The translations under genes were made by a program, and so were the position numbers. This document shows, piece after piece, positions 2,397 through 42,930 of a stretch of DNA of 64,000 nucleotides. The notes beneath the pieces were generated by a model, which saw only the letters and a list, made by a program, of their open reading frames with translations, was not told where the DNA came from and searched no databases. Position 1 is the stretch's first letter; every line of letters begins with the position of its first letter. Source of the stretch: Escherichia coli (GTDB lineage Bacteria > Pseudomonadota > Gammaproteobacteria > Enterobacterales > Enterobacteriaceae). The stretch is from assembly GCF_044324875.1 (NCBI RefSeq), contig NZ_CP172185.1. One strand, given 5' to 3'.

Positions 2397-2801
2397 ATGG
2401 TGGTTATTGGCATCATTGCCATTTTAAGCGCCATTGGTATTCCCGCTTATCAAAACTACCTGCGCAAAGCCGCACTCACCGACATGCTACAAACCTTTGT
2501 GCCTTACCGTACCGCCGTAGAGTTGTGCGCGCTGGAACATGGTGGATTAGATACCTGCGACGGTGGCAGTAATGGCATCCCCTCGCCTACCACTACCCGC
2601 TATGTTTCAGCCATGAGTGTGGCAAAGGGCGTGGTGTCGCTGACCGGGCAAGAAAGTCTCAATGGGCTAAGCGTCGTCATGACGCCGGGTTGGGATAACG
2701 CAAACGGCGTCACCGGTTGGACGCGCAACTGCAATATTCAAAGTGACAGCGCATTGCAGCAAGCCTGCGAAGATGTCTTCCGCTTTGATGACGCCAACTA
2801 A
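2397..2801 (+). pseudogene. ppdD: Type IV prepilin PpdD, N-terminally truncated by the upstream insertion
   Basis: ORF begins MVVIGIIAILSAIGIPAYQNYLRKAA..., i.e. inside the conserved pilin N-terminal helix; the leader peptide and the G/F cleavage site with FTLIE are missing; sequence immediately upstream is low-GC foreign DNA. Confidence 0.75.
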
Positions 2802-8265: not shown

Positions 8266-8345
8266 TTGTCTGATGCGACGCTGGCCTGATAAGACGCGCC
8301 AGCGTCGCATCGGGCATCTTGTGCAAATGTTGGATGCGGCATAAA
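8266..8345. repeat. REP / palindromic unit cluster (BIME) between yacG and mutT
   Basis: gtctgatgcgacgctggcctgataagacgcgccagcgtcgcatc and related REP consensus in an intergenic region between convergent genes. Confidence 0.8.
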
Positions 8346-8348
8346 CAC

Positions 8349-8747
8349 CTATCCGACATACACGCGCTTAAGCTTCGCAATTACCGGTTCATTGGCTGGC
8401 GGAAACTCATCGGCATTAAGACCGACCAGCGACATCCACTTACCGGGTTGCCCTTCTTTACCCCACGGCTCCCCTTCCCAGCTTTCGACCAGCCAGAACC
8501 ACAGTGTTATATGCCTGTCCGGGAATTCATATTCGAGTTTTTCAAATAGCGAAAAATGTTGTGGGGTAATCCCGACTTCTTCCTGAAGTTCACGCACCAC
8601 CGCCTGTTCCGGCGTTTCACCCATTTCAATTTTACCGCCGGGAAACTCCAGTTTATTCGCCATGTGCGCATCTGCTGCGCGACGGGTTATAAAGATTTCA
8701 TTGTTCTCGTTGCGAATAATACCTACCGCAATTTGCAGCTTTTTCAT
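8349..8747 (-). CDS. mutT: 8-oxo-dGTP diphosphatase (Nudix)
   Basis: 132-aa ORF with Nudix box GGKIEMGETPEQAVVRELQEEVG. Confidence 0.95.
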   Translation of the reverse strand: MKKLQIAVGIIRNENNEIFITRRAADAHMANKLEFPGGKIEMGETPEQAVVRELQEEVGITPQHFSLFEKLEYEFPDRHITLWFWLVESWEGEPWGKEGQPGKWMSLVGLNADEFPPANEPVIAKLKRVYVG

Positions 8748-8806
8748 TGTCTTAAACCTATAAAAAAGGCGCAGAATCCTGCGCCTTTTACTTCAACTGT
8801 TAGCTT

Positions 8807-11512
8807 TTATTGCAGGCGACCATGGCACTGCTTGTATTTTTTACCAGAACCGCACGGGCAAGGATCGTTACGTCCTACTTTGCGTTCACCGGTTTGCGCC
8901 GCCAGTGCAGCTGCGGCTGCAGAGTCGTCATCCTGATGGCTAAGCTGCTGCATTTGCGCTAAACGCTCGGCTTCCATACGACGCTGTTGTTCCAGCTCCT
9001 CAACCTCTTCAGGCATACGTACCTGAACTTTGCTCAGCGTGCTGATAACTTCATATTTCAACGACTCCAGCATCGCTGCAAACATGGAGAACGATTCACG
9101 TTTGTATTCCTGCTTCGGATCTTTCTGTGCATAGCCACGCAGGTGGATACCCTGACGCAGATAGTCCATCGCCGCCAGGTGCTCTTTCCACAGAGAGTCG
9201 AGAGTTTGCAGCATGACGCCTTTTTCGAAGTGACGCATCATCTCAGCACCAACCACTTCTTCTTTACGCTGATACACTTCGATGGACTGCGCCAGAATGC
9301 GCTCACGCAGCGTCTCTTCATGCAGTTCTGGTTCTTTATCCAGCCACTCGGCAATTGGCAAATCGAGGTCGAAATCGTTCTTCAGACGTTCCTGCAGCCC
9401 CGGAATATCCCACATTTCTTCCAGCGACTGTGGCGGAATGTAGGCATCAATGGTCACTTTGAACACATCTTCACGAATGCTGTTGATGGTTTCGCTCACA
9501 TCGCTGACATCCAGCAGTTCGTTACGCTGGGAGTAAATGGCGCGACGCTGATCGTTAGCCACGTCATCATATTCCAGCAGTTGCTTACGAATGTCGAAGT
9601 TACGACTTTCAACTTTACGCTGGGCGTTGGCAATCGCTTTAGTCACCCACGGGTGTTCAATGGCTTCGCCTGGCTTCATACCCAGTTTACGCATCATGCC
9701 GGATACTCGGTCGGAGGCAAAAATACGCATCAGCGCATCTTCCATCGACAGGTAGAAACGGGAAGAACCAGCATCCCCCTGACGACCAGAACGACCGCGC
9801 AACTGGTTATCGATACGACGGGATTCGTGACGTTCAGTACCGATGATATGCAGGCCACCTGCTGCCAGTACCGCATCGTGACGAACCTGCCAGTCGGCCT
9901 TAATTTTTTCAATTTGCTCTGCGGTCGGATTTTCCAGCGCGGCAACTTCTGCCTGCCAGCTACCACCGAGCACAATATCTGTACCACGACCCGCCATGTT
10001 GGTCGCGATAGTCACCGCAGCCGGATAACCTGCCTGAGCAACAATCGCCGCTTCGTTGGCGTGGAATTTGGCGTTAAGGACGTTGTGCTTAATACCGGCT
10101 TTGGTCAGTTCGTTTGACACCAGCTCCGATTTTTCGATGGAGATAGTACCCACCAGCACCGGCTGGCCTTTCGCAGTACGTTCTTTGATATCTTCAATGA
10201 TCGCCTGAATTTTTTCCGCTTCAGTCATGTAGACCAGGTCCGGCAGATCTTTACGAATCATTGGACGGTTGGTCGGAACAACGACGGTATCCAGCTTGTA
10301 GATGGAGCTAAATTCGAAAGCTTCGGTATCAGCAGTACCGGTCATCCCCGCCAGTTTTTCATACAGACGGAAGTAGTTCTGGAAGGTGATCGACGCCAGC
10401 GTCTGGTTTTCGTTCTGGATCTGTACACCTTCTTTCGCTTCCACTGCCTGATGCAGGCCATCGGACCAACGACGTCCCTGCATGGTACGACCGGTGTGTT
10501 CGTCAACGATGATAACTTCACCATCTTTAACGATGTAGTCGACGTCTCGGGTAAACAGCGCATGAGCGCGCAGCGCCGCCGTTACGTGGTGCATCAGCAT
10601 GATGTTGGCCGGAGAGTACAGAGACTCCCCTTCATCCATGATGCCTTCTTTCACCAGCAGTTCTTCAATCAGCACCAGACCACGTTCGGTCAGGTTCACC
10701 TGGCGAGATTTTTCGTCCACCGAGAAGTGGCCTTCGCCCTGGAAGGTTTCGGAGTCTTCTTTTTCCTGACGGATCAGGTGCGGAATAATTTTATTCACGC
10801 GTTTATACATTTCCGAGCTGTCTTCTGCCGGGCCGGAAATGATCAGCGGTGTACGCGCTTCATCGATCAGGATGGAGTCCACTTCGTCCACCAGCGCATA
10901 GTGCAGTTTACGCTGTACACGTTCTTCAGGGCTGAACGCCATGTTATCGCGCAGGTAGTCAAAGCCGTATTCGTTGTTCGTACCGTAAGTGATGTCAGCT
11001 GCGTAAGCTTCACGCTTCGCCGGTGCTGGCATGCCCGGCAGGTTGATACCGACAGTCAGGCCAAGGAATTCAAACAGCGGACGGTTGTTTTCGGCGTCAC
11101 GTTGCGCCAGGTAGTCGTTGACGGTAACAACGTGTACGCCCTTACCGGTTAATGCGTTCAGGTAAGCAGGCAGCGTTGCGGTCAGGGTTTTACCTTCACC
11201 GGTACGCATTTCGGCGATGCAGCGTTCGTTAAGAACCATACCGCCGAGTAACTGAACGTCGAAGTGACGCATACCAAAGACGCGCTTACTTGCCTCACGC
11301 ACCACGGCGAAAGCTTCCGGGATCAGATTTTCCAGCACTTCGCCTTTTTCAAGACGTGCACGAAACTCTGCAGTTTTCCCTTTCAGTTCTTCGTCGGAGA
11401 GTTTTTCCATCTCCGGTTCCATGGCATTGATGATGTTGACCACTTTGCGCATCCGGCGCAGGGTGCGATCGTTACGACTACCGAAAACTTTAGTTAATAA
11501 TTTGATTAGCAT
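8807..11512 (-). CDS. secA: Preprotein translocase ATPase SecA
   Basis: 901 aa, [17 protein letters not shown]-terminus, C-terminal zinc-binding [14 protein letters not shown]. Confidence 0.98.
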
Positions 11513-13335: not shown

Positions 13336-14487
13336 TTAATCAGCTTGCTTACGCAGGAATGCTGGGATATCCAGATAATCCGGCTCTTTCGCAGTTTGCG
13401 GCGCATTGTCATTCACGACTTTAGCAACCGGCTTCTGCTCCTGGGTCAGCGGAGCCATCCCGTGCTGCTGGTAGCGATCCATCACTGGCTGCTGAACCTG
13501 CTTATTGGTCACCAGAGTGATTTCAGGACGTTTGTCCATGCCGATACCTGTCGCAACAACAGTTACGCGCAGCTCGTCATTCATATCCGGGTCAAGAGAA
13601 GTACCAATAACCACAGTCGCGTTGTCGGAAGCAAATGCACGGATGGTGTTACCTACCGTTTCAAACTCATCCAGACGCAGGTCGAAGCCCGCCGTGATGT
13701 TAACCAGCACGCCGCGTGCGCCAGACAGGTCGATATCTTCCAGCAGCGGAGAAGAGATAGCCATTTCAGCAGCTTCTTCCGCACGGTCTTCACCACTCGC
13801 CACGCCAGAACCCATCATTGCGTAGCCCATTTCAGACATTACGGTGCGTACGTCTGCAAAGTCCACGTTCATCAAACCCGGACGAGTAATCAGTTCGGCG
13901 ATACCTTGCACTGCGCCTTTCAGTACATCGTTCGCTGCGCCAAACGCATCCAGCAGGGAGATACCGCGGCCCAGAACTTTCAGCAGTTTGTCGTTCGGGA
14001 TAGTGATCAGAGAGTCCACATGTTTGGACAGTTCAGTGATCCCCTGCTCCGCGAATGCCATACGCTTCTTGCCTTCAAAGTTGAAAGGCTTAGTGACGAC
14101 AGCAACGGTCAGGATACCCAAATCTTTTGCCACTTCAGCGACGACTGGAGCTGCGCCTGTACCGGTACCACCACCCATACCCGCAGCAATAAAGACCATG
14201 TCTGCACCTTCCAGCGCCGCACGCAGTGCATCGCGATCCTCATCAGCCGCATTACGGCCAACTTCTGGATTAGCGCCAGCGCCCAGTCCTTTGGTGATAC
14301 CGCTACCGATTTGAATCGTCTGTCCAACCGCTGTTTTACGCAGCGCTTGTGCATCGGTATTTACCGCGAAGAATTCAACACCTTCAATGCGCTCGCGCAC
14401 CATGTGTTCAACAGCATTACCGCCGCCGCCGCCGACGCCGATGACTTTAATCACCGCGTCATTGGTAAGTTCCATTGGTTCAAACAT
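13336..14487 (-). CDS. ftsZ: Cell division GTPase FtsZ
   Basis: 383 aa with tubulin signature GGGTGTG. Confidence 0.98.
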
Positions 14488-14547
14488 AGTTTCTCTCCGA
14501 TTTGTGCCTGTCGCCTGAGGCCGTAATCATCGTCGGCCTCATAAAAA

Positions 14548-15810
14548 TTAAAACTCTTTTCGCAGCCAACTATTGAGTCGCTTGATCCACGAGCCAACTG
14601 ATGCTGTAACACGTTTTTCTACTTCAGCTTCACCGTTAAGATGTGACTCTTTTCCATAGTGAAGCAATCCCACCGCCGTCGAATAATACGGCTCCTGAGC
14701 ATAATCCGTTAAACCGGTAATGTTCAGCGGCGCGCCGATACGCACTTGCGTATGAAACACGCGCTGAGCACAGGCTGCAAGACCTTCGATCTGCGCTGCG
14801 CCACCAGTTAAAACAATGCCTGCCGCCAGGTGATGTTTAACCCCTTGTTGGCGAAGCTTTTCCTGCAACTGCAATATCTCTTCGTTGACCAAGTTGAGCA
14901 GCTCGGTATAGCGCGGCTCGATCACCTCTGCCAGGGTCTGACGTTGCAGACTCCGCGGTGGACGACCGCCTACGCTCGGCACTTCCACGCTCTCATCTTT
15001 TCCAACGATGGAACCCAGCGCACAACCGTGGCGAACTTTAATCGCTTCGGCGTCGCTTGGCGGCGTGCCAAAGGCGTAAGCGATATCACTGGTCACGACA
15101 TTGCCAGCATAAGGAATTACCTTAGTGTGGCGCAATGCCCCACCGGTATAAACGGCGATATCCATTGTACCACCACCGATATCGACGACGCAGACACCCA
15201 GTTCACGTTCATCTTCCGTCAATACCGAATAACTTGATGCCAGTCCGGCAAATATCAGTTGGTCAACTTTCAGCCCACAACGTTCAACCGCTTTGACGAT
15301 GTTTTTCGCCATATCGTTGTGACATGTGATCAGGTGCACTTTTGCCTGCATCCGCACGCCCGAAAGTCCTACCGGATTCTTGATCCCTTCCTGATAGTCA
15401 ATCGCATACTCTTGCGGGATCACATGCAGCACACGATGCTCATCGCGCACACGCACCGATTTCGCGGTATGGACGACGTTTTCCACATCTTCTTGCGTCA
15501 CTTCTTCTTCAGAAATAGGCACCATACCAATTTCATTCTGGCAGCTGATGTGCTTACCAGAAAGCGCCAGATATACCGAAGAGATCTGACAATCTGCCAT
15601 CAATTCTGCCTGGTCAATGGCGCGTTGTACGCACTTGACCACGGATTCGAGGTCGTTCACCCCGCCTTTATCCATACCACGCGACGGGCAGCTGCCCACG
15701 CCAATGATATTGACCATACCGTCGGGCAGAACTTCCCCTACTAAAGCGGCAACCTTCGCGGTACCAATCTCCAGTCCTACTACCAGTTTTCTGTCCGTCG
15801 CCTTGATCAT
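14548..15810 (-). CDS. ftsA: Cell division protein FtsA (actin-like ATPase)
   Basis: 420 aa; dcw synteny. Confidence 0.98.
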
Positions 15811-35425: not shown

Positions 35426-36083
35426 ACTTAACTCCACTGTCACACTTAACTCCCTTTCCCTTATTGGAATGCAGAGAAATAATCCTCGAGAATATGATTT
35501 ATCATGCATATAAAATAAGAAAAAGGAAAATGAGTAAAATTAGGAAAACATAAAGATACGGGTTCTTATAAAAACAGAATCCATTGCCGTGGAAAGCGTC
35601 ATTTACCACAGCATAATAATCCATAATGTTTTTGTTGCGAAAACAATCTAATCATAACTACCACGAATACTCAATCATCCACAAAATGGATTAAATGTGC
35701 TTTTTTAATAATTAATTTATATGTTTAATGCATTAATTCTTAACATTAATTGATCAATAATATTCACCAAATGAATATCAAAAAATTCGCAAAACATATA
35801 ATTCAATACAAATCATCAGGATAGGTTTTGTAACGCGTGCATTTTATCCCCCTTTCCCTCGTCGATTAGATGCAAAAATTTATTCTGAAATATGTCAACC
35901 GATGAAAAGCAGCGGTGGTTAAGCAGAAATTAATATCGCTTGTTTTAACCACCGCAGCACAATTAGCTAATTTGACTGATGCAGAACTCACGCTGGCTGG
36001 ACGTTTTTGTTGCATCAGGGTTGACATCCGTTTTGGTATCCAGTAACTCTAAAAGCATATCGCATTCATCTGGAGCTGATTTG

Positions 36084-36170
36084 ATGACTCACATCGTTCG
36101 CTTTATCGGTCTACTACTACTAAACGCATCTTCTTTGCGCGGTAGACTGGTGAGCGGCATTCAGAATTAA
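36084..36170 (+). CDS. leuL: leu operon leader peptide
   Basis: 28-aa [31 protein letters not shown] with four consecutive CTA Leu codons, followed by an attenuator hairpin. Confidence 0.9.
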
Positions 36171-36194
36171 GTCAGCACTCAGTCAAACAAAAAA

Positions 36195-36219
36195 CCCGCG
36201 CCATTGCGCGGGTTTTTTT
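36195..36219 (+). terminator. leu attenuator (Rho-independent terminator)
   Basis: cccgcgccattgcgcggg hairpin followed by a T7 run. Confidence 0.85.
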
Positions 36220-36262
36220 ATGCCCGAAGCGAGGCGCTCAAAAAGAGACAAGGACCCAAACC

Positions 36263-38925
<2,663 letters not shown>

Positions 38926-38927
38926 TC

Positions 38928-40944
<2,017 letters not shown>

Positions 40945-40977
40945 TTTGTAAACCGTTCGGCACTCAATCGCCAAAAA

Positions 40978-41204
40978 GAAAAAAGCCAGCAGATAATCAC
41001 TGCTGGCGTGGCGATTAACACCAATACTCAGTCACACATGATGTCCGCAAATCAGTAGTCAGAATGACTCCCCTCCCACTGCATCAGTTCTTCAAGCATG
41101 GTTAATAGTTGTGGGACGCTTAACCAACGCAACCAGCACAACTTCGCTGTCGCGGTAAAATAGTGCTGATAAAACTGACGCATGGGGCACCTCCTTGCTT
41201 CATC
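40978..41204 (-). ncRNA. sgrS: Small RNA SgrS (glucose-phosphate stress), contains the sgrT ORF
   Basis: Minus-strand sequence GATGAAGCAAGGAGGTGCCCCATGCGTCAG... ending in hairpin GCCAGCAGTGATTATCTGCTGGC plus T-run; divergent from sgrR. Confidence 0.8.
41052..41183 (-). CDS. sgrT: SgrT small protein (43 aa) encoded within SgrS
   Basis: MRQFYQHYFTATAKLCWLRWLSVPQLLTMLEELMQWEGSHSDY at the end of track ORF 41052..41351. Confidence 0.8.
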   Translation of the reverse strand: MRQFYQHYFTATAKLCWLRWLSVPQLLTMLEELMQWEGSHSDY

Positions 41205-41271: not shown

Positions 41272-42930
41272 ATGCCATCTGCTCGTCTGCAACAACAGTT
41301 CATCCGCCTGTGGCAATGCTGCGAGGGTAAATCGCAGGACACGACGCTCAACGAACTGGCAGCGTTATTGAGCTGCTCGCGTCGTCATATGCGCACCCTG
41401 CTCAACACCATGCAGGATCGCGGCTGGCTGACGTGGGAAGCGGAAGTCGGGCGCGGTAAACGCTCTCGTCTGACATTCCTCTACACCGGGCTGGCGCTTC
41501 AGCAACAGCGGGCGGAAGACCTGCTGGAGCAGGATCGTATCGATCAACTGGTGCAACTGGTTGGCGACAAAGCGGCCGTGCGGCAAATGTTAGTTTCTCA
41601 TCTGGGCCGTAGCTTCCGCCAGGGGCGGCACATCCTGCGCGTTCTCTACTATCGTCCGTTGCGTAATCTGCTGCCCGGCAGTGCATTGCGTCGTTCCGAA
41701 ACCCATATCGCCCGGCAAATCTTCAGTTCGCTAACGCGCATAAATGAGGAAAATGGGGAACTGGAAGCGGACATCGCCCACCACTGGCAGCAAATTTCAC
41801 CGCTTCACTGGCGTTTCTTTTTGCGTCCAGGAGTCCATTTTCATCATGGTCGTGAACTGGAAATGGACGATGTGATCGCCTCTTTAAAACGAATCAATAC
41901 GCTGCCGCTCTATTCGCATATTGCTGACATTGTGTCGCCGACGCCCTGGACGCTGGATATCCATCTCACGCAACCGGACCGCTGGTTACCGTTACTGCTG
42001 GGGCAAGTTCCGGCGATGATCCTGCCGCGCGAATGGGAAACCCTCAGCAACTTTGCCAGCCATCCCATCGGAACGGGTCCTTATGCGGTGATCCGCAACA
42101 GCAGCAATCAACTGAAAATTCAGGCATTCGACGACTTCTTCGGTTACCGGGCATTAATCGACGAAGTTAACGTCTGGGTTCTACCGGAAATTGCCGACGA
42201 GCCAGCCGGAGGGCTGATGCTAAAAGGTCCACAGGGCGAGGAAAAAGAGATTGAAAGCCGCCTGGAGGAAGGTTGCTACTATTTACTGTTCGACAACCGC
42301 ACCCATCGCGGGGCGAATCAGCAAGTCAGGGACTGGGTAAGCTATGTGCTTTCTCCAACTAATCTGGTCTATTTCGCTGAGGAACAGTACCAGCAACTGT
42401 GGTTCCCGGCTTATGGACTGCTCCCACGTTGGCACCATGCTCGTCCGACACATTGCGAAAAACCCGCCGGGCTGGAAAGCCTCACCCTGACCTTTTATCA
42501 GGATCATATTGAGCATCGAGTGATTGCCGGGATCATGCAGCAGATTCTGGCAAGTCACCAGGTCACGCTGGAAATCAAAGAGATCAGCTACGATCAGTGG
42601 CATGAAGGAGAGATCGAGAGCGATATCTGGCTTAACAGCGCCAACTTTACGCTGCCGCTGGATTTTTCGCTGTTCGCGCACCTGTGCGAGGTGCCGCTGC
42701 TCCAACACTGTATTCCGATCGACTGGCAAGCCGACGCCGCCCGCTGGCGCAATGGCGAAATGAATCTGGCGAACTGGTGCCAGCAACTGGTCGCCAGTAA
42801 AGCAATGGTGCCACTTATCCACCACTGGCTGATCATTCAGGGGCAACGCAGTATGCGCGGTCTGCGTATGAACACCCTCGGCTGGTTCGATTTTAAATCA
42901 GCGTGGTTTGCGCCGCCTGATCCAGAGTAG
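41272..42930 (+). CDS. sgrR: Transcriptional activator SgrR
   Basis: 551 aa starting [15 protein letters not shown]; the track ORF carries a 7-codon upstream extension. Confidence 0.95.

Follow-up and report, generated by a model that had tools for sequence, protein, structure and literature searches.

The closest described systems are the leu operon leaders of E. coli K-12 and Salmonella. Work on E. coli MG1655 showed ribosome pausing at the run of four CUA codons in leuL and a 29-fold drop in RNA density from the leader to leuA; replacement of CUA with UUA in leuL reduces the induction of a reporter from 11.5-fold to 2.7-fold (PMC8384417). For the Salmonella leader, the change of CUA to CUG is reported to lower sensitivity (Carter et al. 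1986, as summarized in PMC1183508). A NusA-enhanced pause after a small “protector” hairpin, with the consensus G-10/Y-1/G+1, has been described for leuL, and the K-12 leuL pause context ...AAACGCATCTTCTTTGCGCGGTAGACGAGTG is given in supplement file 2 of that work (PMC9291695). The leaders trpL, hisL, pheL, thrL, and ilvL are of the same class, i.e., each has a leader ORF with tandem codons of its pathway, a pause hairpin, and an antiterminator and a terminator that exclude each other. They differ from the locus studied here in their regulatory codons and sequences.

The locus lies in a stretch of 64,000 nucleotides of an E. coli genome, which we call the window. It is almost certainly the leuL leader with the transcription attenuator that controls leuABCD in the classical way, through the position of the ribosome, and represents an already known system. 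The first-pass annotation had described it as classic leucine attenuation with an intact attenuator. That description agrees with matches to Rfam, Pfam, and NCBIfam models above their cutoffs, with the location between leuO and leuA, with the RefSeq annotation of leuL, and with the presence of every element named. We found no evidence that contradicts the reading as a leu attenuator.

The gene order is ilvI and leuO on the minus strand followed by leuL, leuA, leuB, and leuC on the plus strand, so leuO is divergent from the operon. This ilvIH-leuO-leuLABCD arrangement is collinear with the reverse complement of the K-12 sequence, and the identity to K-12 is 97.6% over the whole window. The counterpart in K-12 MG1655 is leuL (b0075, NC_000913.3, 83622-83708, complement), which has the same locus, gene order, length of 28 codons, and distance to leuA. 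A locus annotated as “leuL: leu operon leader peptide” was found in 5,399 of the 5,426 complete E. coli genomes, with one match in each, using queries of 291 nt and 163 nt.

For this leader itself, the analysis shows every sequence element, the families to which it belongs, and the helices that exclude each other, together with the conservation of these helices. The stretch 36070-36219 (plus strand) matches the Rfam family RF00512 (Leu_leader) over model positions 1-148 of 148 with 140.6 bits and E = 1.7e-32, the gathering score being 50. The leuL peptide scores 68.9 bits against Pfam PF08054 (cutoff 25) and 76.6 bits against the NCBIfam equivalog NF007397 (cutoff 59); against a second NCBIfam model, NF011328, it reaches 46.2 bits, below the cutoff of 63. 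Since it passes the former model and fails the latter, the peptide is of the PRK09925 type. Other Rfam leader families gave sub-threshold scores at this place (Phe_leader 25.6, Thr_leader 22.4, and Trp_leader 21.5 bits), and these matches are driven by the terminator.

The leuL reading frame occupies 36084-36170 on the plus strand, both strands having been read, and consists of 28 codons from the ATG at 36084 and the stop codon TAA at 36168-36170. Codons 10-13 (36111-36122) are four consecutive CTA (CUA) leucine codons, the tandem rare codons of the end product that characterize a leu-type attenuator. The first-pass annotation had these four codons and the 28-residue peptide exactly right. Within the 64-kb window the sequence CTACTACTACTA is found a single time, and 100 shuffles that preserve the dinucleotides do not contain it. 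CTA is the rarest leucine codon in the 35 long ORFs of the window (59 of 1,686, or 3.5%), and with this share the probability that four leucine codons would all be CTA is ~1.5e-6.

The ATG at 36084 is preceded by the Shine-Dalgarno sequence GGAG (36072-36075, plus strand, 8 nt before the ATG), which is conserved in more than 90% of 102 enterobacterial leaders. Thus a leader ORF with its own Shine-Dalgarno sequence and start codon stands upstream of leuA (36263-37834, plus strand), the first structural gene under the attenuator, which is followed by leuB, leuC, and leuD. A longer in-frame ORF of 63 amino acids starting from the ATG at 35979 was considered and rejected as the real start, as its ATG precedes the -35 element and lacks the conserved Shine-Dalgarno context.

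Judging by the sequence, the probable leu promoter is at 36021-36049 on the plus strand. It comprises an exact -35 element TTGACA (36021-36026), a spacer of 17 nt, and a weak -10 candidate TAACTC (36044-36049); one spacer base, 36035, differs from K-12 (T to G). A consensus promoter scan did not flag the leu promoter because TAACTC is a poor match to the -10 consensus. The leu transcript presumably starts at about 36057, i.e., 27 nt upstream of the leuL ATG, as annotated in K-12.

Downstream of the leader ORF there is an intrinsic terminator, the attenuator proper, at 36189-36219 (plus strand), recognized both by folding and by Rfam. It consists of A6 (36189-36194), the 5' arm CCCGCGC (36195-36201), the loop CATT (36202-36205), the 3' arm GCGCGGG (36206-36212), and T7 (36213-36219). 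The 7-bp GC stem with its loop of 4 nt and the A-U extension has a predicted energy of -19.7 kcal/mol (RNAfold). The last T (36219) is 43 nt before leuA, so the terminator sits between the leader ORF and leuA, as an attenuator does. The GC-rich hairpin and the T7 run that the first-pass annotation had placed after leuL can be read directly from the sequence, and the end point it gave, 36219, coincides with the final T.

A simple consensus terminator scan of the plus strand missed this terminator, which is clear by RNAfold and Rfam. In our reading, the scan perhaps extends the stem into the A6 and T7 flanks and thereby consumes the T run. Owing to these flanks the element at 36189-36219 has the shape of a terminator on both strands. 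A match to Leu_leader on the minus strand (33.7 bits, below the gathering score of 50) was rejected; it arises because the terminator is flanked by A6 and T7, and reflects their symmetry.

The complete leader of 163 nt (36057-36219) is strongly structured: its predicted energy is -58.6 kcal/mol vs -35.2 ± 3.5 kcal/mol for 200 shuffles (z = -6.6), and no shuffle was as good. Two helices of the minimum-energy fold make up the protector. One is the small protector, or pause, hairpin at 36125-36139, in which CGCA (36125-36128) pairs with UGCG (36136-36139). The other is the extended protector helix at 36107-36149, formed by CGGUCUACU (36107-36115) and GGUAGACUG (36141-36149). The strand CGGUCUACU overlaps the first CTA codons, and its helix with GGUAGACUG holds the 3' end of GCGCGG (36137-36142), the 5' strand of the antiterminator, or preemptor. 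Thus the protector keeps the antiterminator strand paired and at the same time extends into the control codons. GCGCGG can also pair with CCGCGC (36196-36201), which belongs to the 5' arm of the terminator; according to the folding, the antiterminator and the terminator are mutually exclusive through this shared arm.

The probable RNA polymerase pause site is 36151-36152, with Y-1 = T36151, G+1 = G36152, and G-10 = G36142. It was placed by alignment to the K-12 leuL pause context (PMC9291695, supplement file 2), assuming that the 50-nt sequence given there ends at +1. The pause hairpin (36125-36139) and the consensus bases 36142, 36151, and 36152 are the same as in K-12, and a GA to TG change falls at positions -4 and -3.

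Equilibrium folding of the full leader lets the terminator win even under a ribosome mask. Therefore the argument rests on the kinetic, co-transcriptional order of events, as in the textbook model, and in place of equilibrium folding we folded the nascent RNA only as far as the terminator loop (36205), i.e., before the 3' arm of the terminator. With no ribosome, the protector forms and GCGCGG is sequestered (-38.4 kcal/mol; K-12, -35.5 kcal/mol). If a ribosome footprint is masked over the leucine codons, the GCGCGG:CCGCGC antiterminator closes an inner hairpin (-18.7 kcal/mol; K-12, -19.9 kcal/mol). A ribosome placed at the stop codon leaves both the protector and the antiterminator unformed, and the terminator is free to fold.

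These three states suggest the following course of events, in which the leucine response, the pause, and the transcript start are carried over from published experiments on K-12 and Salmonella. Transcription would start about 27 nt upstream of leuL, and the polymerase would pause just past the CGCA/UGCG hairpin, allowing a ribosome to load on leuL. When charged tRNA-Leu reading CUA is plentiful, the ribosome would pass the four CUA codons and reach the stop codon. GCGCGG would then be unavailable to the 5' arm of the terminator, the CCCGCGC/GCGCGGG-T7 structure would form, and transcription would stop at about 36219. When leucine is scarce, the ribosome would stall on the CUA codons, and its footprint would melt the protector. 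The freed GCGCGG would pair with CCGCGC at 36196-36201 before the 3' arm of the terminator is made, which would lead to read-through into leuA.

We compared the leader with those of other species by scanning species-representative genomes with the exact pattern CTACTACTACTAAACGC. The scan yielded 120 loci, nearly all of them from Enterobacteriaceae, and the 101 unique leaders among them were aligned with the window and K-12; as the sample was chosen by an exact match to this CTA-run pattern, the conservation of the corresponding columns is by construction. Over the 101 leaders, the terminated conformation has 83.7% of cells paired vs 39-46% in slid controls, and the antiterminated conformation has 81.1% vs 21-45%. 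All six pairs of the GCGCGG:CCGCGC antiterminator helix are present in 101 of 101 leaders (100% of cells). The terminator is paired in 94.6% of cells and its GC core is invariant, and the small protector/pause hairpin is paired in 96% of cells. For the protector helix at the leucine codons the proportion is 97.2%, with a compensatory double change of U-A to C-G in 19 sequences. Since the GC pairs of the antiterminator and the terminator are invariant, the support for them is conservation, with no covariation signal.

The Salmonella enterica leu leader, whose attenuator was dissected by Calvo and co-workers, shares with the window the 28-codon peptide, the four CUA codons, the AAACGCA...UGCGCGGUAG core, the CCCGCGC hairpin, and the T run. 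The peptide of S. enterica subsp. arizonae, MSHIVRFTGLLLLNAFSVRGRRVGGIQH, differs from that of the window at several non-control positions. At position 22 the window has Leu (RGRL), whereas K-12-type Escherichia leaders and S. enterica subsp. arizonae have Arg.

The first-pass annotation had proposed alignment with the K-12 leu leader as a check, and in this alignment all control elements are identical. The Shine-Dalgarno sequence, the ATG, the first 21 codons including the four CTA codons, the pause hairpin, GCGCGG, and the terminator are the same, and the spacer between the terminator and leuA matches K-12 save for one base, 36241. The description of the leu control region as canonical therefore holds for every control element; it does not extend to the allele, which is a minority one with seven substitutions relative to K-12 and a peptide that is not the K-12 sequence.

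None of these seven substitutions in the 163-nt leader falls in a control element. At 36083, the position -1 of the leuL ATG and between the Shine-Dalgarno sequence and the ATG, K-12 A is replaced by G. At 36148-36149 GA is replaced by TG, which changes codon CGA to CTG (R22L). The change of C to T at 36161 is synonymous (ATC to ATT, Ile), and that of C to A at 36165 turns CAT into AAT (H28N). The last two, C to T at 36172 and G to T at 36179, follow the stop codon. Locally, over 35751-36250, the identity to K-12 is modestly lower (94.6%) than the window-wide 97.6%.

Six of the seven substitutions are probably shared as a set by the 98 genomes, out of 5,426 complete ones of E. coli, that carry this allele (at most one mismatch over 163 nt; peptide WP_032141177.1). 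In particular, E. coli strain 7/2 (NZ_CP023820.1) has a leuL coding sequence and a peptide (WP_032141177.1) identical to those of the window, and its leader differs from the window at one base, having A at 36083 instead of G. An exact match to the 163-nt leader was found in none of the 5,426 genomes, the best match being 162 of 163 (99.4%), and G36083 was not found there. This base may be a genuine SNP private to the strain, or it may result from an error in sequencing. It makes the start of leuL read TTTGATG; TGATG is common among Citrobacter leaders.

Other variant states of the allele also have parallels outside Escherichia. The peptide ...RGRL... with Leu22 is the usual state in Enterobacteriaceae, the RGRR of K-12 being the exception, and a C-terminal Asn occurs in other leaders too. 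Four of the six linked substitutions (the GA to TG pair and C to T at 36161 and 36172) restore bases typical of other enterobacterial genera, and these four bases are absent from other Escherichia species. Over 36137-36177 the nearest non-Escherichia sequence is that of Citrobacter sedlakii, with one difference, vs five differences for K-12.

The tail of the window's peptide was not found in the other Escherichia species representatives. Those of E. albertii, E. whittamii, Escherichia sp. E1V33, and E. coli have the K-12-type tail, and Escherichia sp. MOD1-EC7003 has a K-12-type tail save for Pro at position 22. We thus rejected import of the variant tail from another Escherichia species, and the absence of the tail from these representatives indicates that the allele was derived within E. 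coli. The restored family-typical bases may have come from a tiny conversion patch or from convergence, two origins whose sequence traces would look alike over ~40 nt.

In the predicted structures, the TG that replaces GA finds its partners in C36107/G36108 (protector) and in C36180/A36181 (inner hairpin of the antiterminator). The C to T change at 36172 turns an A.C mismatch of the outer helix into a pair and gives an uninterrupted stem of 11 bp. According to these folding models, the substitutions of the allele re-register a few pairs and leave the three-state logic unchanged. They are few, lie outside the control elements, and look harmless from the sequence. With an intact leu control region, the strain should show normal regulation of leuABCD.

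Three other explanations of the locus deserve consideration, and two of them concern whether it is an attenuator at all. The hairpin and T7 run might have nothing to do with the short ORF and be an ordinary terminator, perhaps one that works in both directions, the CTA run being a coincidence. The A6 and T7 flanks, which give a terminator look to the minus strand too, speak for this idea, yet no gene converges on the element, as leuO points away from it and leuA follows it in the same orientation. A run of four CTA codons would arise by chance with the probability of ~1.5e-6 given above, GCGCGG is complementary to the 5' arm of the terminator in 101 of 101 leaders, and published experiments tie the CUA codons to read-through (PMC8384417). 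We regard this explanation as extremely improbable. It is also very improbable that the leader is a decaying or inactive relic, with the leu operon constitutive or otherwise controlled. What might suggest decay is the local divergence from K-12 alone (94.6% vs the window average of 97.6%). Against decay, the ORF is intact, as are the Shine-Dalgarno sequence, the four CTA codons, the pause hairpin, GCGCGG, and the terminator, which are the same as in K-12; the Rfam score far exceeds the threshold, the allele is kept in 98 complete genomes, and the substitutions preserve or improve pairing.

The third explanation accepts a functional attenuator with a set point different from that of K-12, for example with tighter basal termination. 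The cluster 36148-36179 and G36083 would alter the protector, the inner hairpin of the antiterminator, and translation initiation. Several features point this way: relative to K-12, the protector gains 2.9 kcal/mol of predicted stability and the antiterminator loses 1.2 kcal/mol, C to T at 36172 closes the A.C mismatch and leaves 11 bp of stem uninterrupted, GA to TG lies 3-4 nt upstream of the presumed pause 3' end, and A is replaced by G at 36083, between the Shine-Dalgarno sequence and the ATG, in a leader that has no exact match in the 5,426 complete genomes. However, energy differences of 1-3 kcal/mol are within the error of nearest-neighbour prediction, and all consensus and control positions are as in K-12. 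Moreover, the variant states (CTG at codon 22, ATT, GTC after the stop codon, and TGATG) are common in other Enterobacteriaceae that retain the same attenuator. A shifted set point therefore seems unlikely to us. Also doubtful, and if anything slightly more so, is a related idea about the origin of the cluster, namely that the six linked changes within 32 nt (36148-36179) are a short inter-genus gene-conversion patch or a co-selected structural set that retunes the set point by strengthening the protector and weakening the antiterminator a little.

Read as the ordinary leu attenuator, the locus can serve as a positive control, being a textbook attenuator that was recovered exactly from the sequence. 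It also illustrates natural variation of such a leader: the tail of the peptide and the outer helices tolerate change, and the CTA run, the pause hairpin, GCGCGG, and the terminator are fixed across genera. This pattern fits the view that the RNA switch, and not the peptide, is the object of selection.

Several other features were observed in the window. At positions 1-2396 it contains the right-hand end of an integrative element; this element, ~9.5 kb long, interrupts ppdD, with the junction at 2396|2397. The gene ppdD (2397-2801, plus strand) is without its first 12 codons (MDKQRGFTLIEL in K-12), and foreign DNA adjoins it. A large serine recombinase of 520 amino acids with the Pfam domains Resolvase, Recombinase, and Zn_ribbon_recom is encoded at 793-2355 on the minus strand, 41 bp from ppdD. 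In strain MSI001, which is 100% identical over 1-2450, the element is ~9.5 kb long and cuts ppdD into a 5' fragment of 27 amino acids and a 3' part. There it also encodes a small recombinase, a helicase annotated as 'type III restriction endonuclease subunit R', and four hypothetical genes. The ppdD-splitting element is present in six of the 5,426 complete E. coli genomes. The element resembles a rare integrative island, possibly related to defence, that targets the type IV pilin gene.

The part of the window from ftsZ-lpxC-secA to mutT-yacG contains three gathering-level Rfam matches, all on the minus strand: PssrA (105.5 bits, 14479-14568), STnc40 (81.7 bits, 8762-8831), and naRNA4 (60.2 bits, 8283-8358). 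Downstream of the leu operon, the sugar exporter gene setA (K-12, 77621-78799) is absent, and ~1.26 kb of the K-12 leuD-sgrS sequence is replaced by ~40 bp (40938-40979). SgrS is intact (Rfam 223.6 bits, 40978-41204), and the sgrR-sgrS region is 94.4% identical to K-12. About 1 kb of DNA that is extra relative to K-12 lies at 42925-43934, between the end of sgrR and the TPP riboswitch of thiB (Rfam TPP, 43970-44069); it contains an ORF of 189 amino acids (43160-43729, minus strand) with no Pfam match. Between rluA and djlA, an IS3-family element (59777-61330) replaces yabP/yabQ of K-12. Its orfA (59907-60437) matches HTH_28/HTH_Tnp_1, and its orfB (60542-61264) has the rve integrase core.
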